64,000 bases of DNA from contig QPGO01000004.1 in NCBI GenBank assembly GCA_008632985.1, positions 372,001 through 436,000 of the forward strand, read 5' to 3'. This document shows positions 1-25,497 of the stretch, piece by piece; within the stretch, counting starts at the first letter, position 1, and each line of letters starts with the position of its first letter. The notes beneath the pieces were generated by a model. It saw only the letters and a program-made list of their open reading frames with translations, did no database searches and was not told the DNA's origin. The DNA comes from Psammoneis japonica. Lineage: Eukaryota. The position numbers and the translations under genes are program-made.

Positions 1-900
1 GCTGTTGCACAAATTTTCATTTGTTGCTGTGTGTGACACGTGAAAATGAGGCAATCACTGATGTCACTGGGTGAGACATGTCACCCATGAAAAAAGGCAG
101 TAAAATGCAGTGGTGCCACAGCAATGGTTTTTTGAGCTGCCCCACTTGAGATCAGCCAGCACATGTGTGGACAGTGTGCCTTCAGCCATCGGCATGGCTT
201 GAGTTGGTGAACAAGCTGCAACCTCCACCAGTCAAAGAGCAGCACTGCTGTCAAATGCCAGGAGCCACAGGTGCATGTGGCACACTCTCTTCTCTTTTTT
301 GCCATGTGCAATGCACTCTCATCCTTGCACAGCCACTCATGCTGCTTTTCTCTTTCCTTGTCTGCCCCCCCCCCCTTGGTTTTGCACAGACAGAGTCACA
401 TGTGATGCCCTTTGATGGATCAAGTTTTGTGGGTGTGTGATCTTTTCACACACACCTGCTGTTCTGCTGCACTCATTCACCAACAAAGAACACCTTTGTG
501 ATTCTGTGAAAGCCCCAGCATCAATGTTGTTTTGGAGACAAATGAAGTCTCATGCACCGCAAAGTGAGGAGGGGCATCACCACACCAGAGCTGTGGAGAG
601 AGAAAAAGAAAGCAAAGAAAAAAGGGCAGTGGGACTGCTCCACCAGGCTTGCCAACAGATGCAAGCTTGGAGCTGGCTCCTCTCTTGTTGGGCAGCAAGA
701 TGTTCTGATGCTGGCCTCTTTCTGCCTGTCTTTTGCTGGCTCTGCCTTTCTGCCTGCCTCTCACACATGGTGTGGCCTGCCTGCATCACCTCCAATGATG
801 GCACAGAGTCACAAGAAGGCTTGGATGTGGTCTCATGCTCCCTTCTGCTTGTGTTGATAGAGTTGTGATGCACTGTTCGAAGTGGTGCTGGCAGCCAGCA
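1..900. repeat. TpA/CpG-depleted degenerate repeat block (family not identifiable; runs off window start)
   Basis: Essentially no TA and few CG dinucleotides until ~850, with TG/CA excess. Composition matches the identifiable TE relics elsewhere in the window. Confidence 0.55.
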
Positions 901-1081
901 TGTTTATGTTTTGTGCAGATAAGGCATAACACGCCCCTGTTGATGGGGTGACTACATCATGACATGCGTCCCTTGCTTCAACTAAGCACGACGCCTCTGT
1001 GAATGAAGCCATGTCGCAGCAGCAGAAAAGCAAGCAGATTATACATGTTACAGCGCACAGTAGAGAAATCGAACCATTACC

Positions 1082-2293
1082 CTACGGATTCGGGTCAACC
1101 ATTGTTCTCTTCTTCTTACGGTTTTCCCAGAAAAGCTGTTTGCGCAAGGGGAGGGGGCCGGTCCGGTTACCACGACGAAGCAGCGTGGAAGTAGGTGGAC
1201 GATAGCGTGCCTTAGGGATGTCAAATTCTTCCTTGAGACGACGGAAAAAATCGCAGTCGATGCGAATGAGTTCTTGGGCAAATTCATATACCATAGTGTC
1301 AAGCGCATTCAACATGCTGTAGTTTTCCCTGTTGTAAGAGTTGGAGTAGTTGGCGGCAGCAACACGATGATGCTCAATTTCTGTCTTATGAAAGCCCATG
1401 AATCCAATTGTGTCCTCGAAGCAGACACTCGACTCGACATTGATAATGAAATCAAATCGCGAAAGCATACGTCTCGCCATGTTGACGTGACCAATGGTCG
1501 GCTGAAAGCCTTCCGGATAATCCGAGCTACCTGCGGTCAAACTCCACGTCATGTAGTTTGACTGAACAATCTGCAACCGTTCCGTCCTTCCCGCGTCGGT
1601 AAAGTTGCGTTTTCCGAAACAGGTCTGAGATAGCCACATGTTTACATTGCTAATTGCCCGTGCCACAGGTTCACGAATCGAAATCGAATGAGCAAACTCA
1701 GAACAAAACAAACTGTCATCATGATCAAGCCATCGCTCGTTTCCAATAAAGTCATACGGGGAATCTACTGCTTCTCGACAGGACAGGGACTGTCGTGTAA
1801 CGCAATAGTTACACCAGAACGGACATAAAGCTTTGTGCCGACAGAGCTTTGGGGGCGCCTTGAGTCCATTGTCCCTGACTAGCCGACAGAGACTGGTTCC
1901 ACCCGTCTTGGGGATGTGCAAGTTGTATTGTCTCATGTGAATCCGCGGTATAAATGCCTTAGCAAAGTACTGAAAGTGACGATCAAAGCAAGACGGATCG
2001 GCGAGCGTGACGTTGTGTCGCAACTCGTTCACTTCCCACGGCTCCATCGTTCCCTGCTTGAGCATCTTTCCAACATGATCACAGTCAACTGGTGGTAAGG
2101 GATATTCAACAGGCAAAAGAGGCGAACTTGCTTCAATAACTTGAGCCGGCGGGGAATCGTCAGTGTAGAGTGATTTCTGTCTCGCGGTCTTGACGCAGGG
2201 TTCGCCTCTCATCACATAGAAACTACCATTAATTAACGCCGATAACACCAATAAGACGCCAATTTGATACGTAAAGGGACTCGACATCGCCAT
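1082..2293 (-). CDS. Sulfotransferase-family (PAPS-dependent) type II membrane protein
   Basis: 403-aa intronless ORF. N-terminal hydrophobic anchor (IGVLLVLSALING), 5'-PSB-like HIPKTGGTS and 3'-PB-like IREPVARAIS. Normal Tyr and TA content. Confidence 0.75.
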   Translation of the reverse strand: MAMSSPFTYQIGVLLVLSALINGSFYVMRGEPCVKTARQKSLYTDDSPPAQVIEASSPLLPVEYPLPPVDCDHVGKMLKQGTMEPWEVNELRHNVTLADPSCFDRHFQYFAKAFIPRIHMRQYNLHIPKTGGTSLCRLVRDNGLKAPPKLCRHKALCPFWCNYCVTRQSLSCREAVDSPYDFIGNERWLDHDDSLFCSEFAHSISIREPVARAISNVNMWLSQTCFGKRNFTDAGRTERLQIVQSNYMTWSLTAGSSDYPEGFQPTIGHVNMARRMLSRFDFIINVESSVCFEDTIGFMGFHKTEIEHHRVAAANYSNSYNRENYSMLNALDTMVYEFAQELIRIDCDFFRRLKEEFDIPKARYRPPTSTLLRRGNRTGPLPLRKQLFWENRKKKRTMVDPNP

Positions 2294-2559
2294 TGGACTT
2301 CCTTATGCGACCTTATGGTTGCGTTTACCGGTGCTTCAGCAACGAAAACTAAACTGGATGCCTTTGTGTCTTGTGCTCACTTTTGTTTTGTGTCGTTGTT
2401 GTTGCGTTAGTTGCGTCGGCGAGCTCGCTAAATACTGTACAGTACCGTTCGTTTTGGCCGAACCCATTATCATACAAAACTTCTAAGTTACTTAGATACC
2501 ATTATATTTTTTTAAATTCATAGCATTAAAATTGTCCGAAATGAATAACAGTCAATCAT

Positions 2560-4867
2560 GCGCGCAGCGCTCAGGTGCAGTGCAGTGTCAGTGGTGCTGT
2601 GCGGCAGTGAGACATCAGACATCTGTTGCTGGAGGCACAGTGATGGACCAGGTCTTGCTGGCACTGCATCACCCACAAGTTGAGACTGTGCCACACCCTG
2701 TGCACAGTCTTCGGCCAATGACAAAACCAAAAAATGCACAAGAAAAAGTTTGCAATGTGTCTTTGGGGAGCTGTTGAAGCCAACAAAGTGCACTTGTTCA
2801 CGACGAAAATGCCCAAGGAGTGCAGTGTTGAAACATGAGTGAGAACAAGAGTTGCCCATGCTGGGAGGTTTCAGAGCAGGTTCTGTGCAATGCCACAGGA
2901 CAGCACAGGCTCACAACCTGGTGGAGGCTCAAGATGTTGCAGAGCAGCGGCCTCTGTTTCCAGAAACAGCACTGAGGCATGCATGTCATCATCAGCAGAC
3001 CAGTGCATGGTGGAGCACCATGGTGGAGTCACAATGACTGCAGTGTCCAAAAACTCATGGTGGCACAAACTTGGTGCCCAACTGGTGCTGGTTTGACTTG
3101 GCAGTTGCCCAACCAGAAAGAGCAACACTGGCTTGCATTGCTGCACTGACTTTGCTGCTGCTGGCAGCTTTTCACAAATTTGTGCCAGAAAGACACAGTG
3201 AGTGGCAAATGGCACGCAGCTGCAAGAAGAATGTGCACTGGCAATTCCCTCCAACAAGAATGTGTGCTGGCAATTCCTTCCAACAAGCAATGTTGCACAT
3301 TGCACAACACAAAACAGCAAACACAGTGCTCAATGAATTGCTGCAACGTTGCTGTGCCATCTGTGTCATGTTGCCAGCCATCACCACCAGAGCTGGCAGC
3401 AACAGCAACAGAAGCGCACTGGCCAAAGCTGAAGCTGGATGCCCTCCTGTGCAGCAGCAGCAGCAGCAGCAGCAAGGGCATGCTGAAGTGGCAAAAGCGG
3501 GGCACTGGGTGAAGAAATGGGCATCAACACCCCCTGACATTGTCTCCAGCAATTTTGCCACAGAAGACCTGGTTGAGTTCAATCATGGCTGCATCTGCAA
3601 GCAGCCATCAGTGAAGCAGTTGTGTGGGTGTCTCCTCTGTCTTTGAGAACACAGAGAAATGCTGCTTTGCACAGGGATCAGCATCACAAAACAAACCAAG
3701 AATTTGATGTTGATGCTCAACATCCACTCTCCAAGAAGTGCTGGGTTGCCACATGGCAGCTGAGGTCAAAAACCAAGTTTTAGATTGCCTTGAACAACAT
3801 CTTCATTGCAAGCAACATGAAAGGGAGTGGGTCAGCAGGCATTTGTCCTTTGCTGTGCTTGTTTTGACAAACTGAAAATGACATGCTGAGACACTGTTGT
3901 TGCATCTTGTTTTTGCATCTTCAAGGAAATCTTGTTCATGCAAGCACTGCCCAGGTTTGCTCTTGCCCTGACTCCTGCATGGAAAAAGGCAAGATCAAAG
4001 GCAGATTGTTTTCAAGGACACTGCAGCACATGTCCCACAATTGGCAATGATGCTGCAAACCAAGAACTCAAGGATGACCTTGTTGTGAGTCCCTCCAGCT
4101 TCTTGTTGGAGCAGAGCTGTGCTTGCAGTCAAAGTCCCACTGACCTTGCTGCTGACACAAGCACCCATGGCAATGAATCTGATCCTCACCCCACTTCCCA
4201 TGGCACCCATGTGGCACCACAACAACTTGCCATGGTGGTCATGAGATGACCCATCTTCCTCGCTGTCCTCACCCAGCAATGAGGCTGACAGTGCAACTGC
4301 TGCCACAGTGCCAAGAGACTCAACAGCCAGCTTGTGGCTGCTGTGATGGTTGGCACTGTAGACGTGACCCTGCCATTGTCAGCAGCTTCAACCATTGCTT
4401 GTTGGTTGAGCCACAACTCCCACATGCCAGCACAGATGACAACACAAGATCCCATGACACCTCTGTCATCATCTGACCTCACCTTGGATCATTTTTTGGA
4501 GAATTGCCAAGGACAAGCTGCACTTGTGTTTGCACTGAAGCTGCAAAAAGGACGGGTTTCAAGAGCTCTTTTGCCTTTGGAAAGAGAGCAAGAGCTGGGA
4601 GACTTTTTGTGCCATCTCATTGATGGCTGGTCATTTGACAACAACTTGCATGGGCCACCCTCCAATTTTCAACCAGCCAGGCTGGATGCACTGCAACAAA
4701 AGTTAAAAACTGCAGGGGACATTTGCAAAAGGAGGTGCCATTCCATGCAAGGTGCCCACAGCACTGGCACATGATCATGCACAACTGGTGGAGAATCTGT
4801 TCCCAGCTTTGGCGGGTGCCTTTTCAATGGCAAACATTTTTTTCAGTTTAAAGGAAGTCGTGCATCT
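2560..4867. repeat. TpA-depleted degenerate TE-derived block; target of the Copia insertion, continuing at 8813
   Basis: TA nearly absent. Contains (CAG)7 at 3452-3472. TSD CATCT at 4863-4867 and 8813-8817 shows the flanks were contiguous. Confidence 0.5.
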
Positions 4868-5143
4868 TGACAGGATTTGAACAGGATTTAGGTGCGCGCG
4901 AAATGTCGCACGCCATTTAGTTTGCCGCGCACAGTTTTGTGTGCTTTAGTTCCGCGCGTTCGCGTGCGATGTAGTTTGCTTTCGAGCCACAAGGCTCACA
5001 AGAATGACAACAGTGGCCCGATCATACCAACTTACACGTCTTTCGGCGCCTGTGATGGTCTCTGAGCGGAGACTCATCTGCCATTTAGACAGCAGCAAGG
5101 AGTTGTTGTTTGAATTCTTGCCACCTGCCTTCAATTTCTGTCA
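4868..5143 (+). repeat. 5' LTR (276 bp)
   Basis: TG...CA ends with an imperfect 14-bp terminal inverted repeat. Colinear without indels with 8537-8812, 31636-31911 and 33285-33560. Confidence 0.95.
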
Positions 5144-8100
5144 GGATCAGATCCGTGAGCGTGGTGCCCCATCCAAACTCATTGGCGACCGTGCTCAAGT
5201 TGAGATCAGCAACAAGGTGCTCGGGATCCTGCGAGCCCTCTTCATCTCCAGCTGGCAAAGTGAGCCTCACCAGCAACACCAAAACTTTGCCGAGCGTCAA
5301 TGCCAGACTGTGAAGCGCGTGGCGAACACTGTCATGGATCGTTTCGGTTCGCCTGCCCACACATGGCTGCTGGCACTCATGTGCGTGTGCTTCACACTCA
5401 ACCATGCAGCGTCCCCACGTCTCCACTGGTGCACGCCCCTCGAGACTCTCACTGGCTCCACCCCGGACATCAGCCCATTGCTTCGCTTTCACTGGTGGGA
5501 ACCCGTGTGCTTCCACCTGTGTGACTCCGATTGGCCGTCCGAATCCCATGAGTTGCGTGGACGCTTTGTTGGCATTGCTGAGCATGTCGGCCACCAGATG
5601 ACCTTCAAGATTCTCTCTGACGAGACTCAGAAGATCCTCCACCGGTCCAACGTACGATCCGCTGCCACCGACCCTGCCGTTCGAAACCTGCGTCTTGATC
5701 CTCCTGATGGAGAGCCACCTGAACCCATCATCAAATCTCGCCATGACGACAACCCCGTCGATTCTCCTGATGGGGAGATCAGGACACCCAAGATGCCAGT
5801 TTTCGATCCGCAAGACATCATCGGACGCACCTTCCTCATGCAGCCACAAGAGGACGGACAACGCCACAGAGCTCGCATCGTCAAGGCCGTCGAAGACCAC
5901 GAATGGAAAGTGAACGGCAATCCCGAGCTCACTAAGTTCGTCTGCTCTGTCAACAACGACGAATGCGAGGAAGTCCTTGCCTGCAACGACATCATGAATC
6001 ACATTGAGCAAGAAGACGAAGACACTGCTGTTTGGAAATTTCGACGCATCGTGTCACACGAAGGACCTCTGAAGCCTCATGACCCAACCTGGAAAGGCTC
6101 AAGCTACAACATTGTGCTTGAATGGGAAAGTGGGGAGATCACGTCCGAGCCTCTTGCCATCATCGCCAAGGACGACCCCGTCACCTGCACCATCCATGCA
6201 CGAGAGAACGGACTTCTCGACACTGATGGCTGGAAGCGGTTCCGCACCATCGCGAGGCACCAGAAGAAGCTGTTTCGCATGGCCAACCAAGCCAAGCTTC
6301 GCTCCTTCTGCACTGCACCTCGCTGCAAGTACGGGTGTGAAGTTCCCCGGAACTGCAAACACGCCATGTCACTAGACGAACGCAACGGCAACCGCAAATG
6401 GGGAGACGCAACTAATCTCGAGATGGACCAACTCGAGGAATACAAAGTCTTCCATGACTGCGGGCCCTTCGAGTCTTCCACTCCTCCTGCAAGACACAAG
6501 AAGATCCGAGTGCACCTGGTGTGCGACGTGAAACACGACGGTCGCCACAAGGCACGACTCGCAGCCAATGGGCACCTCACGGACGTACCCATCGACAGTG
6601 TCCACTCCGGAGCAGTCTCCCTCCGTGGCCTTCGGCTGATGATTTTCCTGGCCGAACTCAACGAGTTGGAGACATGGGCCACCGACATTGGCAATGCCCA
6701 CCTTGAAGCCACCACCAAGGAGAAGCTCTACATTGCAGCCGGACCCAAATTTGGCAAACTCGAAGGACACATCCTTGTCATCCACAAGGCCCTGCATGGA
6801 CTGCACAGCTCCGGCATCCGCTGGCACGAGCACTTCGCCAACTGCCTGCGAGCTGAAGGCTTCTTCCCCTGCCGCGCCGAACCCGACATTTGGATGCGCA
6901 GGAACGGCGACCACTGTGAATGCATTGCCGTTAATGTGGATGACCTCGCCATTGCTGTGAAGGACCCTCAATCTTTCGTTGATGCTCTCACGGAAAAGCA
7001 CAAGTTCAAGCTCAAGGGTGCCGGACCCATTGAGTTCCATCTGGGCTGCGACTTTTCCCAGGATCCCGACGGCACCTTGTGCCTGTCTCCGCGCAAGTAC
7101 ATTGAGCGCATGGTCGACAGCTGCACCCGACTGTTTGGGGAGAAACCTGCCACCAACGCCCTGCCACCTCTGGAGAAGGGTGACCACCCCGAACTGGACA
7201 CTTCCGAACTGCTGGGGCCCGATGGCATTCACAAGTTCCAGTCTCTTGTTGGTTCACTCCAATGGGCAGTGTCCCTTGGTCGAATTGATGACATGCGGAG
7301 GTGCGAGGGGTGAGCTGCCGACGGACACAGAAGACATGTAGTCGGGGCTGAGGCGGCAGGCAAGGAACTCGTCATGCGTGAACAACGAGGAGTCATTGGC
7401 AACGTCAAGACCTTCGTGTGCTTTGACAATGTGCAGACCAATTAGAGCTGCCAACATGTTCTTATAACCGCGGGGCAAAGGGATCACATTAGTGCCATTG
7501 TCGCACTCAAGCGAGTCGATTTGGGATGGTATGAACGTGAACAGTTCTTGATGCGAGTCCGTGCCGTCTTGGGTCAAAGCCAAACGAAGAGGGCTCCCAG
7601 CACCTTGGGCAAGCACGGTTCCAACAACGTGCTCGAAACCATCGGTTTGTTGCTGACGAGTGAGAACCATGGCAGACAAAAGTGGTGTCAGGACAAGCAA
7701 TTCTTGTTGGGAAGCGAAGGTAGACTTGAAACTTGGTTCACTCCAATGGGCAGTGTCCCTTGGTCGAATTGACATTGCCACGGCCGTCATGTCACTCTCT
7801 AGCTTCCGAGCTGTGCCCCGTCAAGGCCACTTGGATCGTGCCAAACGCGTCTGTGAGCACCTCTCCAAGATGCGACACGGCGCTCTCCGCATTCGCACGG
7901 AAGAGCCCGACTGTTCAGATCTCCCTGCTCCGGCCTGTGAGTGGATGCATTCCGTGTGCGGCGAAGCAGAAGAGATGATCCCCATGGATGCTCCACCGCC
8001 CCTTGGCAAGTTCGTCACAACCACCCACTGCGTCAATGCAAACTTGCACCATTGCATGCTCACCGGACGCTCTGTCATGGGAATGCTCCACTTCCTCAAC

Positions 8101-8536
8101 AAATTCCCGGCTGATTGGTTCTCTAAGAAGCAAGCCACCATGGAGACTGCGACCTGCAGGTCTGAATTTGTTGCTGCAAGGACTTGTGTCGAGCAGATTG
8201 TCGACCTGCGCATCACCCTGTGCCACCTTGGCGTCCCGATCCGCAATGTCAGTTGCATGTTCGGTGACAACAAGTTGGTTGTAGACAGTGCCACCATCCC
8301 GCACTCCAAGTTACACAAGCAACACACCGCGCTGTCATTCCACCGTGTGCGTGAGGCAATTGCCTCTGGTTGCCTTGAGCTCCACTTCATCGAAGGCTCC
8401 CGCAACCCTGCTGACATTCTCAGCAAGCATTGGGGTTGCTCCCAAATCTGTGACCTTCTCCGCCCCCTCATGTTCTGGAACTTCATTCCATCCGAAGTCG
8501 AATCTGTTTCTGTGGCTCCTCAAGCAAACTGGGGAG
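5144..8536 (+). pseudogene. Copia pol (C-terminal integrase, RT, RNase H), interrupted at 7289-7732
   Basis: ORFs 5004-7313 and 7660-8589. Conserved Tyr positions are replaced by Cys/His (KALHGL, GNAHLE, DHCECIAV, HCVNANLHH, KHWGCS). Confidence 0.9.
7289..7732 (-). pseudogene. Inverted 5'UTR plus gag N-terminal fragment inserted in pol
   Basis: Minus-strand MVLTRQQQTDGFEHVVGTVL...SPLRLAL...IDSLEC (ATG at 7670) resembles the N-terminus of diatom Copia gag. It is flanked by a perfect 40-bp direct repeat (7249-7288 / 7733-7772). Confidence 0.6.
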
Positions 8537-8812
8537 TGACAGGATTTGAACAGGATTTGGGTGCGTGCAAAACATCGCGCGCTATTTAGTTTGCCACGCA
8601 CAGTTTTGTGTGCTTCAGTTCCGCGCGTTCGCGCGTGACGCAGTTTGCTTTCGAGCCACAAGGCTCACAAGAACAATGACAGCAGCCCGATTGTGCCGAC
8701 TTGCACGTCTTTTGGCTCCTGCAACGGTCTCTGAGCGGAGACTCATCTGCTGTTTAGACAGCAGCAAGGAGCCATTGTTTGAATTCTTGCCATTTGCCTT
8801 CAATTTCTGTCA
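8537..8812 (+). repeat. 3' LTR (276 bp)
   Basis: Follows the PPT and is followed by TSD CATCT. Confidence 0.95.
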
Positions 8813-8817
8813 CATCT

Positions 8818-10720
8818 GAGTCTGGACATGGGTTGATGGGAGCCAACAGAGCAGCACATCAGAGGTGAGTCAAGTGTTTGTTTGTTGCTCCTGCTGTTTG
8901 TGACAGAGTGACTCAGCTTTCTCAACCAGGGTGCCAAAAGGAGTGCAGTTGGGGGCATGGAGAGCCATTGGGTGTGGAACCAGGTCAATCTCTTTGGTGA
9001 GAGACTGACCATGGAAATGCAAACTGGCAGCTTGCACAGTGCCATTGCAGCACCAACAATGCAGTTCAAAGTTGGAGTGCAAAAGTGCAAAGATGAAAAG
9101 TGCTCACCTGCAGAAGGCCCGCTGGGTGTCATCCACAAATCCCCAATGGTGCTGGGTTGGTGCCTTTCCAGGTCATCTGTTGGGGTGCCCACATTTGTTG
9201 TCCAAAATGCCAAGTGTCCTGAAGCTCTCAAGTGGAGGAGCACCATGATGGTCTCTGACTGGGCAAATGTCTTGCACCAGATCAACTTTCATCACACAGT
9301 TCTTGGAGAGAAACACCTGGCACAAGCTTGCATGAAATTTCCAGCCAAATTTTGTGATTTTGGTGGGCAGCCATGCCACTGATCTTGTGGCAGAATGCAT
9401 TGCACAAATGATGTGCCACAAACCACATGATGCACACAACTTCACAAGACCCCCCTGCCAAATGCATCCCTGGCCATGCTTGTGCAGCAGGTGTGGTCAC
9501 TTCAAAGATGAGAAAGAGATGTCACAAGCAGAGTTTCTTCATCACAAAAGATGCACCATTCTTCATGACAGATGATGGGTGTGAGCCACAGGCACCAAAG
9601 CAACAGTTTTCTCAGATTGCAATGGTTGCATTCTGTGTGGGGGTCCACTTCAAATGGTGAAAACTTGCAATTCTTCTTCTTCTTTCTTCAGCAAGTTGTT
9701 CTCTCTCTCTCCCTCTCTCTGTCTCTGTCTCTCTGCAACAAAAGAGCCACAATCTTCAAGGTTGAGCAAGCAAATCTCCCCACAGCACTGGCACCACACA
9801 AAGCAACACAGCTGAGGCTCTTTGTCACAAGTCTTTTTTACATGATGTGCTCCAACTCTGGGTGGGACCTTGCACTGCTCTGGAGTGTGATGACAAAGTG
9901 GACATTTTTTTGTGCGACACTCTGCACATGTGTGTCATGCACGCGTGCTTCTGACCACATGTGCTCTTTGCAAAGCTGCTTCACACAGCTTCATTTTTGC
10001 AAAGCAGACCATTTGTGAGAACAAAAGTGGGCTGGGTGCACTCTTCAGTGTCTGAAGAGTGCGCCACCTGGGCAAACCACAAACGACGCAGCACTTCAGG
10101 AATGGGCAGGCCTGCTCGAGATCAAAAATTTGCCTTTTTGTCTGCTGGTGATCATTTGTTTGTTCCCCACCTTGTGATTTTGCTGTGGAGCTTGCATGCA
10201 GTCACAGAATTCTGTGGGCCCAACATCACACTGAGTTCCACCCAGGGCCCACCAGGGCTGGGGTGCAGCTTTGGCTGCCGCTCCTCTCATTTCTTTTGAG
10301 CGCTGGCTGGCAAAGAGCACTGGAATGAAAAGGACAAATGCACACAAGTGACAAATCATTTGAAGGGCAATGCTGAAGTGCTTCCTCATGTTGGTGGTGT
10401 CTCCGACTGAGAGCACATCGCCACGGCACAGCCAGCTTGCTTGCCTGACTGATTTCTCGCACGACACGCCGCACACCGAGCATTGTTGACCAGCTCGCCA
10501 TCAGAGTCTGAGTCTCATCTCTGTTTGAGACATCACAATGAGCATGGCACCTTCGCAGACTGCATGGTCATTTTGGTTGGTTGCCATGTTGGTTGCTGTT
10601 CGTTGTTCGTCCCTGCATGCATTGGTGTTTTTCACAACAGAAAGATGGAACTTGGAATCTTCCTCCCTCCTGTCCTTTTCGAAAGTTCCCGCGGGCTGCG
10701 GCCTTCGTCGGGACACAACG
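8818..10720. repeat. TpA-depleted degenerate block; 8820-9660 may be an older Copia integrase relic
   Basis: TA and CG are both depleted. Weak integrase-like remnants (VVQNAKCPEALKW). A (CT)n tract lies at ~9700-9733. Confidence 0.4.
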
Positions 10721-10993
10721 AGCAACTGTGGTAAATGACAAATGACGAAGCTGTCGCGGCTACCGACTTGTTACCGGACCTTTACCCTTCTCATCCAAAA
10801 CAACGACGGGGCGTGTTGCGGTCGGTCGGTTGAAGATTATTATTTTTGCATTGATAGTTGACGTAACGAACAAGATCAAAAGTTGATTGTGTTGATGCGA
10901 ATAATTGTGGTAAAGATGTTGTTGCGCAGAGAAGATCGCAATAAGAGATAGTGATATGGAAAAACGACCCTAACCCACGGTTTATCTCATCCG

Positions 10994-12819: not shown

Positions 12820-14686
12820 TGTCCGAGGGAGATTTGAGTCGTGAGAACCAGTCGTGAAAAGGGACTGAATTGGTGCCGGATCGCGAATAAACAGAATCTC
12901 GAGACCAAAAGCGAAACTCTAGTAGACGAGAGGACCAAAATGCGAACACAAAACAACGAGAAACATTAGAAGTGGTCTCATAATTTAGGAAAACAGAAAA
13001 TTGAAAAGGCTGCAGGAGTCATCCAGCACACTTCGAAGCAGAGTCTTCCACATCCCTGTTTTGGCCCAGCACAGCGAGACACGGAGATCTCCAGATCTCC
13101 AGCGAGAAGTTGCTGTGCAACTTCCAGCATTCAACAAGGAGCACAGAAGCTTTCAGCTGTGGCAGATGCAATTCAGAGCATGTGCAAGTGTGTGGATTTG
13201 CTTCAGCCTTGAGCACCACCATGGAAGCAAACGTGGTGCCTGGCAAAGAGAGGCAGCGCGGTGCTGTCCAGGTCTGACTGATGGCCTTGTCATCATGCAA
13301 GCAGAAAGAAGAAGGCAGCAGCCAAGCAGTGGAACGTGGTTGTTGCAGCAAATCTTATGATGGCATTCATCACCAAAGGATTGATGGGGCCAGTGCACAA
13401 AGCCCAGACGAGTGGCAATTGGCCAAGTGGGCTCCTGGCCCGGCGCCAAAGAACCGTGGCTGACTTCGAAAGCAGAGCAGAGACAAGATCTGAGCAAAGT
13501 CTCTGTTGGGAGTGTAGACAAGCCAAACAAGTTGTTTGAGCAGTTGAGAAGAATTAAGAACAAGTGCAGCTCCACAAGCTTCAAAGCTGTGTTCCTCATG
13601 AAAGTGCCAAAAGAATGTGACTCGGCACTCGCAGTTGAGCAAAGGATCAAAAGAAGTTCCTTGGAGCTCAAGCATGTGCAAGAGGGTGTGACACAGTTGT
13701 GGAAAACCGTGATGGTGCCTCAGATCTTGGAGACAATGCAAAAGAAGTCAGTTTGGCAGGTGCAAAAATTGTCGAGTGCCGCGGCTGTCTCACAAGAATG
13801 GGCGACACAAGGCATTTCAGTGCTGTCCAGAAGAGCATCATCCTTGAGGTGACAATGGTGAAAAAACAATTTAAACTTTAGCAAAAGGTGCAACACATGT
13901 GGCAAATTTAGCCACAAGGTGGCTGGTTGCTGGGCTGATCCCAAGAATGATGACAAGGCACCTGAGTGGCATGAGAAATGACATCATGAGAGCAGCTGGG
14001 CAAGAATGCAGAAGCAACAGATGTCAAGATGCTGCCACTCAGAAGTGACAAAACAAACTGTCCAGAATCAATGAAGCTCATCAAGGATTCAAATGTGTCT
14101 GTGCTGATGCAGCGGCAACAGTGCACAGCAGCGGAGCTGGTTGTGGCAGAGGTGCAAATGTGACGAAGGCTCACATGGCAGAAGGATTGACAATGGGAAA
14201 TGGTGCAGAAAAAATGTGCAGTCTGCTGTTGACATGCAAAAGGTCATTTGCAACAAGGAAAGGCAGAAGTGGTTTCAAATGATGGAAAATGCAATTTGTT
14301 CAGAGTCGAAGCTGCTGGATGGAAAATGGGTGGTTGCTGCTGAGGTGCAATGTGGCTCAAGAAAGGAGAGCACAAAATTGCATTTGACATCAAGATTGAG
14401 GCTGAGGATGCACTGTCAAGTGGAGGGTTAGCATGCACAGAGAGATGGGCTTAGCTGGAGACCACAAAAACATGGCGAAAGCAAAAATGAAAGAGAAGCA
14501 GGCAGAGTCATTTGACGGCCATGACAAAACACAGAGATGCCTGGAATTCACAAGGGTGGGAGAGTGTCAGGGGAAGATTTGAGCAATGGAGTGACATTAG
14601 AAACAGCCTCATAATCTAGGAAAACAAAACATTGAAAAGCCACAGCATCATAGAGGCTACAGGAGCCATCGAACACACTCCCAACA
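12820..14686 (+). mobile_element. Degenerate, internally deleted Ty1/Copia element (gag, zinc knuckle, protease remnant) with diverged LTRs
   Basis: LTR-like direct repeats at ~12820-13040 and 14565-14686 share TGTC..G.GAGATTTGAG and CTCATAAT.TAGGAAAACA...ATTGAAAAG. A purine tract precedes 14565. Gag-like peptides: LPAFNKEHRSFQLW, ANLMMAF..GNWPSGL, KLFEQL, CNTCGKFSHKVAGCW. No clear TSD. Confidence 0.7.
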
Positions 14687-14981
14687 GCTCGGCAGGGGTC
14701 GGGTGATGACATGCAGTCGTCGTTGTTGTCGTCAGTCGAGTCCCGTTTGAGAACTGCGAGCTCTTCTGCGAGCTCTTCAAAACAAAGCTCGCGAAAAACC
14801 CAGAACGCACGACATCAGCCAGACATCAAAACATAAAAGCGAGTAAGTGTAAAAGTTACAAAGAACAAACTCCAAAACCTACAGTACGGATTGGTTGTTG
14901 TCGGTGGAGTTATTGTAAGCTGTGCACGAGTCACATGATAAGAGTCCTGATTGAGTCCATTCGAGAGTAGAAACAAACGTC

Positions 14982-17528
14982 ATGTCATTAGCGACGGAAC
15001 AGGCGAGCGAATTGCCAACTCGCACGATCGCACAAGTCGACAACGATTTCGAACAAATTGGTTGCTTGGGCCACGGAGGCTTTGGAAGCGTCTTTCTCGC
15101 CAAGAAGAAGTCGGGACGGCGAGTGGCTCTCAAATTTATCCACCTTGATGAAGATGATGAGGATCCTTATGACTGTTTTACGCGAGAACTTGAATCTGTC
15201 ACGAAGCTCCACGACGACGATGACAAGCAAGCACAAGATGTACGCTCCAACTCCATTGTTTATTTTGAAGATTGGTTTACTGGATCGTATTTAAATGGAT
15301 CACCTTTTGCATGCATAATCATGAGCTATGCGGACGGTGGAACGCTCTCCCAAGAAATTGCTTCAAAGTCTGAACCGTACACCGAAAGACGTATCGCTTG
15401 GTACGCGCTACAGCTCAGCGAAGCTCTGGCGTATGCTCACGAGCGAGGTGTTGCGCATCATGATGTGAAGTCCTCCAACGTGCTGATTGAATGGTCGGGA
15501 GGAGGAAGACTTCAATTATGTGACTTTGGAAGTGCAGTTGCTCCTGGAGAAGAAAGCGTCGGATTCAGTGAAATCTATGCGTCGCCAGAGCTCATTGCAG
15601 CGCATGCCCAAGACGACTATACATGCTTAGAGGCGGACAAGACGGATGCCTATGGCTTGGGGTGCATATTATTTGAGCTACTGTGCTGTCAAAAGCTTGT
15701 CGACTTGACTGGCGACCAAACGCTCGCGGAATTCATTCGCGATAATGGCAGTGAAGCAGCGCTGAATTTGCCGTGCGTTCGATTGCCTTGGCTTCCTCCG
15801 GAAGAGACCGCTGTCTCTAAAGAGACAGTAGGCTATTCGAACGCGCTCCAAAGTCTCGTTGTGACCCTTTTAGAACCTCAATCAAAAAGATGGCGACCGT
15901 GTGACTTGCAGAACCCGTTGCGACGCGATCCCCTCAGTCCTCTACTAGCTAAACGAGTCCTCGCGTCGCACGCACTTATACCTGGTGCCCCAGTAACGAT
16001 TGATAATGTCCAGCTCGGTGTATTTGTCCAACGTGGTCCAGATTGGGAAGAGGGAGATGTTGACGGAGGCGCGGGAAGTATAGGAGTGGTTGTCAAACTT
16101 GATCCAGATGCGTTGTACACAACGGTTGTGTGGCCATCGCGATCATTATCCACGCCTTTAGAGCCCGTGTGCTGTCGAATAGGAGCGAACCAAAAGTTCG
16201 AGCTACAAGCTGGGCCCACTCCACTCGCAAATTTTTACAATGGCGTGGGCGAATCGATGAGTACTGGTCTGGTTCTAACTAGAGACGTGTCAAAACATTC
16301 AGTCGGGCAGCAATTAAACAGCAACTGTCTCGTCGTAGGGGTAGAGCCCGATGATAACCTTATATTTGTCGCCCCGCAGGAGAAAATTGCTATTCCCGCG
16401 ATAGCCGCCAGCGCAGCGTCTCCTCCGGCGAATCCGTCTTGCTATCCGCGGAAGCCTCAGACTATTCCTAAGCACTGGGAGCCAGAAAAAGGGACACTAG
16501 TTGAGGTGACCGACGTTCAAGAGAAGAGTAACATTCTTGAAGTGTTCCATTCGATTGAGGGGGGGATGGGCATTCAGGCTTACGAAGTTACCTCGATAAA
16601 GCGAGTCCAATGCGATGAACTATGGAAAGCATATGCTCTTGCACGAGAAGATGTTGCAGCTGAGTTTTGGGGGATCAAAAATGAAAAGCAACTGTTCCAT
16701 GGTACCGGCAGTAGGTCGCCGGATTCATTGCTTCAAAACTGGAGTGAGTTTTACCGGAGCTGCAGCTCTAGTGGCGACGACTTTTCTTCTCAAAAAATTG
16801 TATTTTCAACAAGAGCTTCATGGGCTGACGAGAATCGTCATCAAGCTGCAGCTGGGGAATGGCAAGTCGTTCTGTCTCGAGTGACTCTTGGTCGAGTCCT
16901 TGACAAACGCTTTGATTCAACCGTTGAGACTGCACCAAGTCTGACGTATCACTCTGAGCACACGCTCTTGGCGAGACCGTTCAACCAAATCGAACTCTTT
17001 TCAATTCACAATGCAGCACAGGCATATCCAGATTACATTATCACATACAAGCCACTGTACCTTCAAGGACGTCGTATAGTCTCGGCAAGACGTCCATTCG
17101 GGGTCAACGGAGGACCCCCTGTGCCTTCTGGTCCAAGAAGCCAGTCCGCTTCAGCAAGGCGTGTTGAAGGTGTCCGTAATGCCGCATTGACTGGAAGGGC
17201 AGCAGGTGTTTGTCCGCAGCCACAAAACGTGGCAGCGAGTAGTCATGGTAGCTCAGCCCTTGCCTTATCTACACCAACCGAAGTACCAGACGAGACGTCA
17301 AAGATGACGAAACAAAGCAAGGAAAAGCTCTTGGCATCTCCCACAAAATTGTGCGTTGTCTGCTTAGGTAAACCAGTGTGCCGCATTCTGTTACCCTGCG
17401 GCCATCCTTGTCTCTGTGAAATCTGCTCCACTGCGCAGGGGCTTTCTAAGCTTCGCCACAAATGCCCCGAGTGTCGGAAAACGATCCGAGAGGCTGCAAC
17501 CATTTATGGAAGAGTTGTCAATGATTGA
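14982..17528 (+). CDS. Multidomain protein: Ser/Thr kinase + MIB/HERC2 + PARP-like catalytic domain + C3HC4 RING
   Basis: 848-aa intronless ORF. Kinase: GHGGFG, VALK, HHDVKSSN, DFG, YASPE. MIB/HERC2: VQRGPDWEEGDVDGGAGSIGVV. PARP-like: NEKQLFHGT...SRVTLG...QAYPDYIITY. RING: CVVC...PCGHPCLCEIC...CPECR. Confidence 0.85.
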   Translation: MSLATEQASELPTRTIAQVDNDFEQIGCLGHGGFGSVFLAKKKSGRRVALKFIHLDEDDEDPYDCFTRELESVTKLHDDDDKQAQDVRSNSIVYFEDWFTGSYLNGSPFACIIMSYADGGTLSQEIASKSEPYTERRIAWYALQLSEALAYAHERGVAHHDVKSSNVLIEWSGGGRLQLCDFGSAVAPGEESVGFSEIYASPELIAAHAQDDYTCLEADKTDAYGLGCILFELLCCQKLVDLTGDQTLAEFIRDNGSEAALNLPCVRLPWLPPEETAVSKETVGYSNALQSLVVTLLEPQSKRWRPCDLQNPLRRDPLSPLLAKRVLASHALIPGAPVTIDNVQLGVFVQRGPDWEEGDVDGGAGSIGVVVKLDPDALYTTVVWPSRSLSTPLEPVCCRIGANQKFELQAGPTPLANFYNGVGESMSTGLVLTRDVSKHSVGQQLNSNCLVVGVEPDDNLIFVAPQEKIAIPAIAASAASPPANPSCYPRKPQTIPKHWEPEKGTLVEVTDVQEKSNILEVFHSIEGGMGIQAYEVTSIKRVQCDELWKAYALAREDVAAEFWGIKNEKQLFHGTGSRSPDSLLQNWSEFYRSCSSSGDDFSSQKIVFSTRASWADENRHQAAAGEWQVVLSRVTLGRVLDKRFDSTVETAPSLTYHSEHTLLARPFNQIELFSIHNAAQAYPDYIITYKPLYLQGRRIVSARRPFGVNGGPPVPSGPRSQSASARRVEGVRNAALTGRAAGVCPQPQNVAASSHGSSALALSTPTEVPDETSKMTKQSKEKLLASPTKLCVVCLGKPVCRILLPCGHPCLCEICSTAQGLSKLRHKCPECRKTIREAATIYGRVVND

Positions 17529-18127
17529 ATGCTGCACCGTTAGTCAACAGCAGTAAACTAAGCTTTCAAAAGAATGCTCTCTAGCTAGAGAATAATGGGG
17601 AAGCTAGCTAAAGAGGCTGGTCTCTGGTCTCATCCGTCCTGCCTGCGGCTTCCTGCCTCTGCTTCATCCGCCCGCCCCAGGCCAGCCCGCCCAAACCGTG
17701 ATTGATTCGTCGGTCCTGCGTGCGAGAGCCGCACGTACTTACGGTAAAACAACCCCATCCGCATGAGTGCCCTCGCCTCTGTGATGATTTCTCTGATTTC
17801 TTTCTGCATGCAGCTGCTGGCAACCAAGGTCGTCAACTGGTGCTGTGGGTGTGTGCTTTTATTTTGCATGCAAGTGAATGAGACAAAGAGGTCATTTCTC
17901 TCCCCCCCCCCCTTTCATGTGTGACGATGAAGAAGTGAAAAGCTCTTGTTGTGCCGCGGTGCACAACACAAAAAAGGCACCCCTTTGAGGACAACAAGAG
18001 ATGTGCAGGTGATGTGCTCCCCCTGTTTTTTCCCAAGCATGACAAGGAAACCACACTGATGACACAGGACCACACCACCCAAGAAATGCCAACAATTGTG
18101 CACACTGGCACCCGCCACACTGGCAGC

Positions 18128-21100
18128 TGCAGCACGTGTTGTTGAGCAGAAGAAACTGCGCACATTCGCAATTGCACATTGTTGCATGTGTCAATCACAT
18201 CACAAATGTGGATGCACTTGAAGGACAGATCAATCACACAGACTTGATTGGATGTTAAAAATTGCAAATGTTGTGATCGATCGGCGATGTTGACACACAG
18301 AATGTCAATGTTGATCGCATCCAGACAACACCACGATCTGATTTCCCACAAGGCCTTTGGTCTGCAGGCACACCAGCACAAAAGCTTTGGGCCATTGAGA
18401 ACTTATTTGGAGAAACTCAAACTCACTGAGCAAAGTCTTGTCTTGTGTCTCCACTTTTTGCGGCACTTTCCACTTTCGTTTGCACTCGTTCTTTGAGTGC
18501 AGTGCATTGTGTGTGCACACCACAGAAGGCAAAAACACAAAAACGAAGCTTTCACCTTGTGTTGCTGCTGCCAAGTCTTCCATCAAGCAGGAGAAATTTG
18601 TTCCTGCACCATTGGAGTTAATTTCTGAGCTGAAGATGCTCAAACCAAGTCAGCATCTCAAGATGGGGCAATGCTTTCACCCTGAAGACAAGAAGAGTCA
18701 TGCCCACATGATCAATGTCAAGCAGTGCAACAAGCAGGGAGTTCCCAAGTGCATTGAATTTCTCAAGACACATCATCAAGTCTTGGCCAGACAGAATGTT
18801 CAGAAGCAAGCTGACAAGTTCCATCTCATGTGTGTGTTGTTGCAGGGAGATGCTCTTTGAATTTTGTTTGAGAACAAGGTGGCAAATGTGCAGAAGATGA
18901 AGAAGACAAGGGAGCCTTTGAAAAATTTCTGCATTGTCTCTCAAGCCTCATCTTCCCAAAAAAAGTGCTTCAGAATCAGAGATGCCGTCTGTGGCATGAC
19001 CTCAAGAAACCAGATTTGATGAAGATCCAAGAAATCGCCGCATGGGCTCAGGAGGTCAACGAGGACTTCAAGTTCTGTCCTCTCTTCAAATCCAACCAGA
19101 GTTTGGAAGAAGACAAGCTCAAAAATGTTGTCCACAACCTTGCACCTTGTAAATGGCAGTGCCAGTCAACCCCACAAGGTTTTGAGATTTTGGGCCACAC
19201 ATTTGATGAGCTGGTTGAGTTCTTGGAATGCCTCTGGAGGTTGCTAAAGACATGTTTGACCAGACCCATGTTGGCACTGATGCTGACAGCAAGCCCAGTT
19301 CCAAAGCCAAAGGTGGATCCCAACATGATTTCAAAAATGGTTGCCCATCTAGTGCCAAATGTTCTGAGTCCAACAAGTGGTGCAATTGTTGCAAAAAGAT
19401 GCTGGGTCATCAAATCATTAAAAGACCAGCAAAAGGAACAAGGTGAGAACATGGAACGGAACTCAAAATGGCAATGTCCAAATGGCAATTGCACCTGGTC
19501 ATGTCTTGCAACAATGAAAATGCCACTCACAAGGAAGAGCTGAATGCCATGATTTCTCAGGCAGTCAAAAAAACTCTCAAGGCAAGTTCCTTGAAGAACA
19601 ACAAAAAGCACAAAGACAAAAATTCCAACTCTGACACCCTCAGTGAAGAGAATTGCCAATTTGAAGAGATGCCACACAGTGAATCTCAAGAATGACCAGC
19701 TCCTGTCAAGGAGTCATGTGCATCACTGGACATTGGAAGCCTGGGAAAAAAGCCAAAGCAATTCATGCCAGTCCAGTGGTCTTTGCTTGTGTGAGTGCTT
19801 TCTCAGGGAAGGAGAAACCAAGCCTCTGCATGTTCTTCTCAACAGTGGAACATTGTCAACCACAATTTTGCACAAATTCATGTGAAAATTGAGAACCAAA
19901 GAATCCACCACCAAAACTTGGGAAACCAAGGGAGGGCTCTGTGCAACCAATGGCAAATGCAAAATGCAGTTCTTGTTGCCTGAACTGGGTGAACACAAAG
20001 TGACAGAAGACGGCACACATGGCTGGACAGCACTTCTTCTTCTTCATGTGGATGTGATCATGGGACGTGACTCAATGAGCAGTCTTGGGATCACACTCAA
20101 TTTTGCAAATGAAGAAATCAAATGGGAAAATGCAACAGTGCCAATGAAGGATGCAGACACATTCTTTGATGCCAAGGTCATCAAGCTGATTGCCGATCAC
20201 ATTAAAAAATTTCTTGCCATGAAAAGTCTCAATGACAGGGTCAACAGGGTCACACTGCCAACCTCAGTGACACACCTGCAGCAGTGCCTCATCTTGCCCC
20301 AGAGGAGCAGAAGCAACTGAACTTTCTCCAAAAAAGGTTTGAAAATCTTTTTGATGGTTCCTCATGCACATGGACTGGAAAGCCGGTCTCGATCTTACAT
20401 TGAAACTGGGCACAACCCTGCATCATGTGAAAACATTTTTGGCTCCGCAAGCCTTGGAGGCAACTGCTCAAAAAGAAGTTGAAAGGCTCTCCACAAACTG
20501 GGAGTCTTGAAAAAATCCAACCTTTGTTGAACCTGAGAAAAATGGCAGATTTCAGTTTTTGTCCAACTTTCGCAAGCTGAACAAGAGGTTGACATGCACT
20601 CCGCATCCTCTGACCAATGTTCAAGATGTGCCACAGAAGCTCAAAGGCTTCACACATGCAATGTCACTTAATTTGAATGTGAGATGTTGTCACATCAAAT
20701 TGACACCACGTGCATGTTGATTGTGCACAATTGTGATGCCATGGGGGAAATGTGAGTGCTGCAAACTCCCCGTGGGAATTTGTGGAGCCCCAGATGTTTT
20801 CCAAAAGCACACAAGTGAACTCATGGCAGGCTTGGAATTTGTCAGGACTTGTGTCAATGACATGCCATGCATGACAAAAGGTGACTTCAAAGGTCACCTT
20901 CAAAAGCTCAAAACAGCATTGCTGTGGTTCAAACAAGCTGGTTGAAAGGTCAGTGCATTGAGAAGCCCTTTTTTGCAAAACCCAAAGCAGGCTGTTTGGG
21001 GTTTCACATTCCATGACAAGGTGTCAAACCTGTCCCTAAGAAAGTGGAGGCAATTCAATTGAGATTGCCCCTCCTGAAACTCTCAAAGAATTGTGATGCT

Positions 21101-23307: not shown

Positions 23308-24107
23308 TCAGAGTGCATGACATCGCAATGTCTGCACATGTGACAAAAACATGTTGCCATGTTATAAAATCTGCTTGTCTGCACACAACGGTTTTTGTCA
23401 TTTAGTCAATTGTTGATCTCCTGCCATTCTTCATGTTTGAACACAGATGTTTTTTTAATTTTTGTGCTCTGCCTTTTTCACAACAACTGACGATCTTCAA
23501 CGACAAGCCAAACATCATTGCAATTGCATGCAATGAAATTTTCATCATGTGAAGTGTGCACCAATCATTTGATCAACAACTGTGCTCCAATTTGCCCAGT
23601 CGTCCGCATCGTCGTCTTCATTCCATGTGTCTTGTTCGCTCTCTTGCAAGAATTTCAAATGTGCCGCTGCCGCGTTGGATGTTTCCTCATCACCGTTCCA
23701 AAAAAGCCACACTGCATTTCTTGCATTTGGGTGAACATCATCGAGAGGAAGAGGTCCCTTGAAGTGCTGAATTGCATCGCTGCTCCCCTCTTGACGTCGT
23801 GTTGTTGGCTTTTTTTTCTCTTTCTTCATTTTGCCCGTCCCATTTTTCTCTTCCTTCCTCGTCTTGGCGCCGCCTGTTTTCACCGTCTCCGGCGTCTTTC
23901 CATCCGAATCCTTCTTTTTCATCAATCCCGTTGCCATCGCCTTCATCTCTTGTTGTTGTTGTTGTTGTTTTTTCTGTTGTGTGTCACTTTGTTTTGGATC
24001 CATGTTTCTGACTTCTCTCTGTGCTGTCTCCATTTCCGAATGTTTCTTTGTGATTGTTCGCGTGCGTCACTTGAAGGCACCCACATGTTTTTCACGTGCC
24101 TTAACGT

Positions 24108-25460: not shown

Positions 25461-25497
25461 AAAAATCCAAATGGCACGAATCCATCACATCATTTGA

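Follow-up and report, generated by a model that had tools for sequence, protein, structure and literature searches.

The 64,000-nucleotide window analysed here (positions 372,001 to 436,000 of contig QPGO01000004.1 from the diatom Psammoneis japonica) carries at positions 4868-8812 a defective Ty1/copia retrotransposon, referred to below as the first element, which lies in a transposon island of the diatom genome. The islands of this kind in the window are nearly devoid of the dinucleotide TpA, and we consider it quite probable that an in-situ process of DNA mutation, targeted to TpA and restricted to discrete domains, acts in them. In the mechanism that we propose, the DNA of an island would undergo, after integration, a targeted conversion of the A:T pairs of TpA to G:C on either strand, giving TpG or CpA, and this conversion would outrun the ordinary CpG decay of the same islands several-fold. 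Retrotransposons and a DNA transposon bear the signature alike, and where genic DNA begins it halts over a distance of only tens of bases.

Paired long terminal repeats as records of mutation after integration

The preliminary description of this DNA had counted four copies of a 276-bp long terminal repeat (LTR), and we find two of them on the plus strand, as the ends of the first element, and two on the minus strand, as the ends of a second, internally deleted element of the same Copia family (Table 1). The target-site duplications (TSDs) of both elements are perfect at 5 bp (CATCT for the first and, in plus-strand letters, ATGGT at 31631-31635 and 33561-33565 for the second), so each element represents a single insertion and the two LTRs of each pair were identical at the time of integration. 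The LTRs of the first element now differ at 36 positions, by 35 transitions and 1 transversion and with no insertions or deletions, and those of the second element differ by 17 transitions and no transversions. Such divergence between LTRs that are still framed by intact TSDs bears out the earlier proposal that the mutations took place in genomic DNA after integration.

Most of the differences are interchanges among four dinucleotide states, TA, CG, TG and CA, which account for 32 of the 36 differences in the first pair and for 16 of the 17 in the second. The first pair has 10 sites with CG opposite TG or CA, 6 with TA opposite TG or CA, 8 reciprocal swaps of TG and CA (16 differences, at LTR columns 37, 138, 141, 147, 156, 186, 215 and 237) and 4 differences of other kinds; the corresponding numbers for the second pair are 5, 3, 4 swaps and 1. 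The lack of insertions and deletions, the near restriction to transitions and the 8 swaps of the first pair had been described before and were recounted as stated. When the differences are scored by position, 33 of the 36 in the first pair fall within the 146 of 276 positions that lie in TA, CG, TG or CA steps (binomial p 6e-7), as do 16 of the 17 in the second pair within 144 of 276 positions (p 2.6e-4).

These properties affect the use of LTR divergence as a clock, as had been anticipated. The raw divergence is 13.0% for the first pair and 6.2% for the second, compared with 2.3% (3/130) and 0.76% (1/132) outside of the TA, CG, TG and CA steps, and standard LTR dating therefore overstates age by ~6-fold and ~8-fold, respectively, figures that rest on very few background differences. 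For the first and older pair, the loss of TA per LTR is at least 0.6 and the change at positions outside of TA and CG is ~1.2%, which suggests a ratio of TA loss to background of the order of 100, calculated from 3 background differences. A hand calculation with a homogeneous rate for all TA sites predicts ~2 swaps in this pair, where 8 are seen; the excess means that context-dependent rates are needed and that per-site rates drawn from the LTRs are rough.

The ancestral state of the altered sites

Reciprocal swaps can arise from CG as well as from TA, a caution already entered in the preliminary description and one that is illustrated by LTR columns 32-33, which read CG in one copy, CA in one and TG in two. 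Considered together, the coding record, the other copies of the family and the LTR sites nevertheless indicate that the ancestral state at most swap sites was TA and not CG.

For the coding record, the two open pieces of pol (Table 1) were aligned, each on its own and unaltered, with 40 relatives that are intact and 56-68% identical, and the 523 columns that are at least 80% conserved in these relatives were examined. Tyrosine is the conserved residue in 26 columns, of which the first element retains Tyr in 4 and has Cys (TGY codons) in 12, His (CAY) in 7, Phe in 2 and Asn in 1, compared with the retention of conserved residues other than Tyr in 450 of 497 columns (Fisher p 2e-17). A CG ancestor at most of the swapped sites had been named beforehand as the result that would overturn the idea of TA conversion, and the outcome was against CG, with 19 of the 26 conserved Tyr columns now occupied by TGY or CAY. 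Arginine is conserved in 43 columns, where the first element has CGN codons in 34, AGR in 2 and CAN or TGC in 7. Counted as codon loss, 19 of 23 TAY codons have been altered versus 7 of 41 CGN codons (Fisher p 4.5e-7), at a rate ratio of ~9.3, which agrees with the earlier suggestion that the mutation of TA outpaces the decay of CpG. A codon list read by eye contains 8 further replacements in pol that fit a single step from TA to TG or CA (for example, from Val GTA to Ala GCA) and 8 others that fit a single step from CG to TG or CA.

Among the swap-type sites of the LTRs, TA is kept in one of the four copies at two sites and CG is kept at none. Two sites to which attention had been drawn from the sequence were found as reported: CGC[TA]TTT, at columns 47-48, has TA in the 3' LTR of the first element, CA in its 5' LTR and TG in both minus-strand copies, and CAG[TA]GCC, at columns 147-148, has TA in the LTR at 33285-33560 and TG or CA in the other three. 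Columns 138, 215 and 237 are swaps in both of the independent pairs, so each of the four LTRs must have mutated at these columns since its insertion; if CG sites decayed at the observed per-LTR fractions of 0.28 and 0.135, only 0.04 double-swap sites would be expected, and the probability of the three or more that are seen would be 1e-5.

The wider family was compared through the contigs of a public run (X1), in which the positions where a different letter makes up at least 5% of the depth comprise 197 transitions and 34 transversions, and the dinucleotide context was read at 40 of these ~232 variable places. At 5 of the 40, the first element has TG or CA and other copies have TA at 14-79% of the depth, and at 3 it is the first element that keeps TA while other copies have TG or CA. 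At 6699-6700, within a conserved Tyr codon, the first element has CA and about half of the depth of the other copies has TG. The second element's internal array of 42-bp tandem units can be read in the same way, since site 21-22 of the unit is CA in 7, TG in 5, TA in 3 and CG in 1 of the 16 units; the CG that adjoins this site is intact in 14 of the 16, and another neighbouring CG is kept in 10 of the 16.

Elements related to the first one provide controls for these comparisons. In four metagenome contigs with 66-68% protein identity to it, the observed-to-expected ratio (o/e) of TA is 0.65-0.92 and Tyr is kept in 12 of 13, 11 of 11, 13 of 13 and 12 of 13 conserved columns, from which it follows that the family is not natively poor in TA. 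The full signature recurs in JAAUXU010128967.1 (1-969), where the o/e of TA is 0.01 and that of CG is 0.11, and where 13 conserved Tyr columns contain Cys in 10, His in 1, other residues in 2 and Tyr in none; its DNA is 66% identical to that of the first element over the one 456-bp stretch that aligns. The one-sided outcome in this contig, with 10 Cys to 1 His, might reflect a strand bias of a kind that is not seen in the first element (12:7). Another relative, JFJP01038003.1 (1-8981), has a CpG o/e of 0-0.04 over its first 5 kb with a normal TA o/e of ~0.5, keeps Tyr in 6 of 8 columns and has 14 stops in the matched frame. This loss of CpG at a normal level of TA implies that the two decays are separable and that they differ between lineages.

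TpA-depleted islands in the window

When scanned at 500-bp resolution, the window resolves into ~30 kb of depleted blocks, with o/e values of 0.08 for TA (163 TA in all), 0.47 for CG, 1.68 for TG and 1.63 for CA, and ~34 kb of genic DNA, with values of 0.56, 0.99, 1.16 and 1.14, respectively. For the other 12 dinucleotides, the ratio of depleted to genic DNA ranges only from 0.90 to 1.17. The G+C content of the two compartments is equal (48.8% depleted, 48.3% genic) because the gain through conversion of TA to TG or CA offsets the loss through conversion of CG to the same products, and scans of GC content would consequently miss these islands. The longest runs without any TA measure 1,235 and 1,084 bp. 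Edges against genic DNA are abrupt; for example, there is no TA from 9839 to 10732 and there are then 8 TA in 132 bp, and similar steps occur at 2546, 12986, 17860, 35049, 40306 and 43241.

Two grades can be told apart among the depleted blocks. Some have lost TA and largely kept CG, as in the first element itself (4868-8812; TpA o/e 0.16, with 32 TA, and CpG o/e 0.83, with 247 CG) and at 23501-31635 (0.07 and 0.62), and others have lost both, as at 2501-4867 (TA 0.07, CG 0.13) and 18001-23500 (0.06 and 0.16). No block in the 64-kb window has lost CG and kept TA, and this asymmetry, which also fits the earlier view of the relative rates, implies that TA is the first to go.

The blocks contain the remains of Copia, Gypsy-like and Plavaka-type elements, the last being DNA transposons. 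In the LTR remnants of the Gypsy-like element (TpA o/e 0.06, CpG o/e 0.16) there are 19 TG/CA swaps, 12 sites with CG opposite TG or CA and no remaining sites with CG in both copies. The open reading frame (ORF) of the decayed Plavaka/KDZ-type transposase found no match in a near-length word search, and an exhaustive search recovered 530 relatives at E<=1e-3 (best 7e-74); all 7 of the relatives that were scanned match Plavaka, 5 of the 7 above the curated cut-off. Tyr makes up 0.2% of this ORF versus 3.2% in 60 relatives, and the 4 conserved Tyr columns, without exception, are now Cys or His. The occurrence of the signature in a DNA transposon implies a process that is independent of reverse transcription. 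Across the 18 ORFs of the depleted blocks that were compared with Pfam, RT_RNaseH and the weak Plavaka match were the only results accepted, and other matches, at E 0.013-0.05, were taken as chance.

The sequences that flank the first element at 4700-4843 and 8876-9000 also lie in blocks with a TA o/e of 0.01-0.07, and no other contig at least 80% alike was matched to them (word depth 75-81). The sharpness of the borders, the co-extensive loss of CpG and the signature in these flanks without a repeat match suggest that targeting depends on chromatin state rather than on repetition, although the flanks could themselves be old repeats, by now too diverged to be recognized.

Strand symmetry and the flanking-base rule

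The claim that both strands are hit stands, in that the altered Tyr codons of the first element have become Cys in 12 cases and His in 7 (binomial p 0.36) and the depleted blocks contain 3057 TG and 3132 CA. On the sense strand of the elements TG is slightly more frequent than CA, as it is in the intact relatives. The bases next to TA, counted with the strands symmetrised in depleted versus genic DNA, have a large effect on its survival. The context TTAA is spared, with 27 TA to 512 other states in depleted DNA and 43 to 610 in genic DNA (p 0.27), and ATAT is nearly erased, with 1/420 in depleted DNA versus 84/395 in genic DNA (p 2e-23). Survival relative to genic DNA is 0.43 for TTAG/CTAA, 0.06 for GTAC, 0.03 for ATAC and 0.01 for ATAT. 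If these values are taken to reflect a strand-specific event at the A in T-A-N, the preference for the 3' neighbour is in the order T > C > G >> A. In a comparison of TTGB with TCAB as products of TTAB sites, the counts are confounded by TG and CA that are native or come from CpG. The LTRs fit this rule, as judged by eye from the contexts of their survivors and swap sites: 4 of the 8 TA positions that are still kept by any LTR copy are TTAG, and the swap sites, if they were TA, would have been ATAT, CTAT, ATAA, TTAT, GTAA and GTAG.

The first element and its family

The first element has the TG...CA LTRs, the 5-bp TSD and the RVT_2 reverse transcriptase domain (Pfam, E 2.2e-23) of the Ty1/copia group and aligns by blastx with full-length relatives, whose polyproteins are 1,700-1,930 residues long. 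It does not have the complete gag-protease-integrase-reverse transcriptase-RNase H coding capacity of an autonomous element, since residues ~126-889 of a reference relative of 1859 residues are missing, a gag fragment is inverted and 22 of the 26 conserved Tyr residues have been replaced. The element thus resembles the Ty1/copia elements of diatoms in its termini, TSD and RVT_2 domain and differs from them in its deletion, inverted gag and lost Tyr; such elements are presumably those named 'CoDi' by Maumus et al. 2009. The inverted gag insert lies within the RNase H region, and the 40-bp copies on either side of it (7249-7772 overall) are identical to each other and free of TA; the arrangement resembles what a template switch during reverse transcription would produce.

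The pol of the first element is heavily damaged, with 0.5% Tyr, 3.7% Cys and 5.5% His, compared with Tyr at 3.5-4.4% and Cys at 0.7-1.2% in the first 12 of the tabulated relatives. It had been described as rich in CpG, nearly free of TA and free of frameshifts, and the first two properties hold; the third is correct for each of the two open pieces (719-721 and ~250-270 codons) and not for the element as a whole, which is rearranged. Long open frames are to be expected here partly as a by-product, since the stop codons TAA and TAG vanish along with TA. Relatives of pol number 744 at E<=1e-10 among the long proteins searched, the best 120 of which are 56-68% identical. The family is highly repeated by the measure of summed word depth in the contigs of run X1, which is 53,741-250,194 across the first element and 75-81 in its flanks, and which does not translate into a copy number.

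Table 1. Coordinates of TpA-depleted blocks and of the mobile elements within them
Feature	Positions	Strand	Remarks
TpA-depleted block	1-1000		TA o/e 0.11, CG 0.13
TpA-depleted block with first element	2547-10731		TA-free runs 2546-3781, 8755-9839, 9839-10732
TSD CATCT, left copy, first element	4863-4867	+	Same letters as 8813-8817
5' LTR of first element	4868-5143	+	276 bp, TG...CA termini; 7 TA retained
Pol piece: integrase end, reverse transcriptase, RNase H start	5144-7289	+	Open frame; blastx to residues 890-1608 of the 1859-residue relative
Exact 40-bp direct duplication, first copy	7249-7288	+	Second copy at 7733-7772; brackets the inverted fragment
Inverted N-terminal gag fragment of own family	7296-7670	-	Residues 1-125 of relatives; E 5e-9 to 2e-4 by blastx in 6/10 relatives searched
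Pol piece: RNase H end	7733-8536	+	Residues ~1595-1848 of the relative, then purine-rich tract before 3' LTR
3' LTR of first element	8537-8812	+	276 bp; 3 TA retained
TSD CATCT, right copy, first element	8813-8817	+	Same letters as 4863-4867
TpA-depleted block	13001-14500		TA o/e 0.09, CG 0.29
TpA-depleted transposon island, 17 kb	17861-35048		TA o/e 0.06-0.19 by sub-block
Older Gypsy-like LTR element	18171-23264	+	LTR remnants 18171-18497 and 22943-23264, 75% alike; RT_RNaseH ORF 21373-21837
Decayed Plavaka/KDZ-type DNA-transposase ORF	28483-29937	-	Pfam Plavaka E 1.3e-4, below curated cut-off
Second element, same Copia family, internal deletion	31636-33560	-	LTRs 31636-31911 and 33285-33560, 276 bp each
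Tandem array of 42-bp units inside second element	32592-33284	-	16 units compared
TpA-depleted block	40307-43240		TA o/e 0.08, CG 0.62

Alternative explanations

Several other histories could be imagined for this pattern. If methylated CG had been deaminated on opposite strands in the two LTRs, reciprocal swaps would result without any involvement of TA, and conversions of CG to TG or CA do take place in these elements, as seen at LTR columns 32-33, in private changes of the first element among the 40 family places that were read, and in the CpG o/e of 0.47 for the depleted blocks. Decay of CpG by itself is nonetheless very improbable as an explanation, because it can neither remove TA to an o/e of 0.08 nor make Cys and His from 19 of 26 conserved Tyr codons; it is also at odds with the survival of TA, and never of CG, at the swap-type sites, with three sites hit in all four LTRs where 0.04 were expected, and with the 14 of 16 units of the 42-bp array that have kept the CG beside the site that varies. 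Editing before integration, whether of an ADAR-like A-to-I type on element RNA or by a deaminase on cDNA, would draw on the preference of ADAR for U before the edited A (bioRxiv 10.64898/2026.01.13.699255, as stated there), and a part of the TA loss may predate the insertions, considering that the master copies share the genome. It would leave strand-biased changes shared by both LTRs, the second result that had been named beforehand as contrary to mutation in place, and what was found are LTRs that differ from each other at 36 and 17 positions, with both TG and CA outcomes on one strand, and a signature that extends to a DNA-transposon remnant and to the flanks at 4700-4843 and 8876-9000; we regard such editing, too, as very improbable. 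The elements might instead always have been poor in TA, for example because UpA is avoided in RNA or because of codon habits, and genic DNA in the window is itself moderately TA-poor (o/e 0.56), as it is in many eukaryotes. A native or selected composition is even harder to credit, since intact relatives have a TA o/e of 0.65-0.92 and keep their Tyr codons, the replacement of conserved residues that gave pol its present content of Tyr, Cys and His is damage rather than adaptation, and the non-coding LTRs and the tandem array have changed likewise. An error of assembly or sequencing is the least credible of all, as the pattern spans whole domains, respects the codons and is present again in JAAUXU010128967.1, and as run X1 has contigs that agree with the flanks at every base, over lengths of 195 and 215, and extend into the LTRs, with the proviso that this run may be the source of the assembly and not independent of it. 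Of two further runs, X2 gave a single matching contig, at the right-hand LTR edge, and X3 is small.

A different chemistry might arrive at the same outcome, either through a modified thymine (such as 5-hydroxymethyluracil) that mispairs with G or through error-prone repair synthesis at WA motifs in silent chromatin. TpA is palindromic, so the sequence cannot separate a change of A to G from one of T to C on the opposite strand; in dinoflagellate DNA, hydroxymethyluracil is found preferentially at TpA; and the decay of CpG in the same domains would supply mismatches that might recruit repair synthesis. The other half of the WA motif, AA/TT, is however unchanged in the depleted blocks (depleted-to-genic ratios of 1.06-1.07), and the transitions in the LTRs, at 35:1 and 17:0, are too pure for synthesis of the polymerase-eta type, which also makes transversions. 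We consider these chemistries unlikely as the source of the pattern, though deserving of more weight than the histories described above.

The conversion of TpA in place remains our preferred explanation, and a number of observations weigh against it or limit its reach. Its evidence consists of fixed differences in one 64-kb window and at 40 of ~232 variable places, not of mutations seen arising, and the order of preference for the 3' neighbour matches no enzyme that was compared. A TA ancestor for 6 of the 8 swaps in the first LTR pair is drawn from context and analogy and was not seen as such. The decay of CpG is substantial, accounting for 10 of the 36 differences in that pair and for 12 private changes of CG to TG or CA in the first element among the family places read; for the younger pair, the fraction of TA lost is 0.2 (given that one copy keeps TA), which is close to the CG value of 0.135. 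The comparison of Tyr with Arg codons spans the whole history since the ancestor of the family and not only the time after insertion, and selection on master copies could have differed between the two types of codon. There are also a few changes of A to G outside of TpA (6335, 7941).

Relation to known mutational systems

In the literature searched, no title was relevant to TpA hypermutation in diatoms, and the only pertinent work is a preprint on the chlorarachniophyte Bigelowiella natans (Mettrop et al., bioRxiv 10.64898/2026.01.13.699255). According to its main text, mutation accumulation in that alga reveals changes of TpA to TpG or CpA in integrated DNA of giant viruses and virophages; in one of two integrated viral regions 210 of 211 new mutations, and in the other 20 of 20, changed A to G or T to C; these all lay at TpA, and the rate was ~6e-7 per site per generation, or ~1000-fold above background. 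The same source reports that TpA-poor coding sequences are enriched genome-wide in reverse transcriptase and DDE domains, and its authors propose an ADAT2-like adenine deaminase. The diatom islands resemble that case in that changes nearly confined to A:T to G:C at TpA, on both strands and in foreign or mobile DNA, leave tracts poor in TpA and rich in CpA and TpG, and the restriction to TpA, the involvement of both strands and the confinement to mobile DNA (genic TA o/e 0.56) are all found here. The two cases differ in that C:G to T:A changes at CpG occur in the diatom as a second process, in host lineage (Rhizaria for B. natans and stramenopiles for the diatom) and in the state of the targets, which in the preprint are two viral integrations that are still fairly rich in TA (3.3% and 9.2% TpA) and here are whole transposon islands near saturation (TA o/e 0.01-0.19). 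Moreover, the mutations of B. natans were seen arising, whereas in the diatom islands we infer them. The main text of the preprint, its supplements apart, is silent on CpG and flanking bases as well as on diatoms and retrotransposons, and the link to CpG decay, the sparing of TTAA and the record in LTR pairs therefore appear to be additions, unless they are contained in those supplements. What is new here comprises the host lineage, the class of target, the near-saturation, the link to CpG decay, the flank rule and the proof of in-situ change from paired LTRs.

Comparison with better-known systems brings out both likenesses and contrasts. Fungal repeat-induced point mutation (RIP) likewise constitutes a mutational defence that introduces transitions in a dinucleotide context, on both strands and after integration, into repeated or mobile DNA, but it changes C:G to T:A mostly at CpA, so that TpA becomes enriched (RIPCAL, PMC2621366, as described there); in the diatom islands the direction is opposite, TpA being destroyed (o/e 0.08) and CpA and TpG created (~1.65). 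The decay of methylated CpG takes place in the same blocks (CpG o/e 0.13-0.83), makes the same TG and CA products and can yield swaps, but its target is CG and not TA and it proceeds several-fold more slowly here. Editing by ADAR or APOBEC3 in animals also leaves clusters of transitions in mobile elements; it takes place before integration, in RNA or cDNA, and affects one strand and both LTRs alike, in contrast to the post-integration changes on both strands, and in a DNA transposon as well, that are described above.

Possible agent and implications

From the purity of the transitions and their dependence on a motif, which favour an enzyme over damage or polymerase error, we infer that the process is enzymatic. 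The agent might be a nuclear DNA adenine deaminase that acts on T-A-(not A) and is guided to silenced, methylated chromatin, a guess that we are nearly, though not quite, as ready to accept as to doubt. Wobble deaminases of tRNA, as far as is known, always act on A34 preceded by U33, which amounts to a T-A context and makes a DNA editor derived from TadA/ADAT2 an attractive candidate. More tentative, and on balance doubtful, is the broader idea that diatoms possess a chromatin-guided adenine deaminase that erases TpA from silenced islands, as a form of immunity similar to RIP and of opposite chemistry. Such a deaminase could be shared with the chlorarachniophytes, either as an ancient possession of the SAR (stramenopile, alveolate and rhizarian) supergroup or through repeated evolution. 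If this idea is true, the purging of TAA and TAG stops and of all Tyr codons from mobile DNA, and the offsetting of the GC loss caused by CpG decay, would be by-products of the deaminase system.

Essentially no natural enzymes are known that target a defined dinucleotide in double-stranded genomic DNA and mutate its adenine (or thymine), and the 2026 preprint on B. natans is the sole precedent found. A far stronger and older footprint in a second, unrelated algal lineage would mean that the phenomenon is general, and it enlarges the set of targets with which the enzyme might be found. The flank rule, by which TTAA is spared and ATAT, ATAC and GTAC are erased, can serve as a fingerprint of specificity for candidate enzymes, and the co-extensive yet separable decay of CpG offers a handle on what marks a domain for mutation. 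There are practical consequences for annotation as well, in that transposons with rewritten Tyr, Ile and Val codons will escape repeat finders and homology searches, and spurious long ORFs will arise where two of the three stop codons have been erased.

Other features of the window

A 1.5-kb patch of normal TpA content at 1001-2500 lies between two TA-free blocks and contains an ORF of 406 residues (1082-2302, minus strand) without a Pfam match; the patch may be a small host gene or something that is shielded from the process. Adjoining a hypermutated block, a plus-strand frame of 857 residues at 14955-17528 combines a protein kinase, MIB_HERC2, a C-terminal RING finger and, at a score below cut-off, a PARP catalytic-like domain, which is an unusual mix. 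The minus-strand frame of 775 residues at 37693-40020 has no Pfam match and includes a tandem array of at least ~15 units of 27 bp (9 residues) at 38078-38698; its normal TpA content makes it likely to be a host gene that encodes a repetitive protein. Acetyl-CoA carboxylase is encoded on the minus strand at 51332-56912 by a gene that is split between two long frames with 5 bases in common (54729-54733); the split is due to a frameshift or to a very short intron, and the gene has no introns otherwise. Of two atlas comparisons made to place the host, one pointed to diatoms and the other was ambiguous, with Mucoromycota, Chlorophyta and Haptophyta at the top, and the relatives of this carboxylase decided for a diatom. 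Its identity is 65-70% to the enzymes of named diatoms (Ditylum, Cylindrotheca, Thalassiosira, Pseudo-nitzschia, Seminavis and others), 62% to that of Triparma and 51-53% to those of other ochrophytes.

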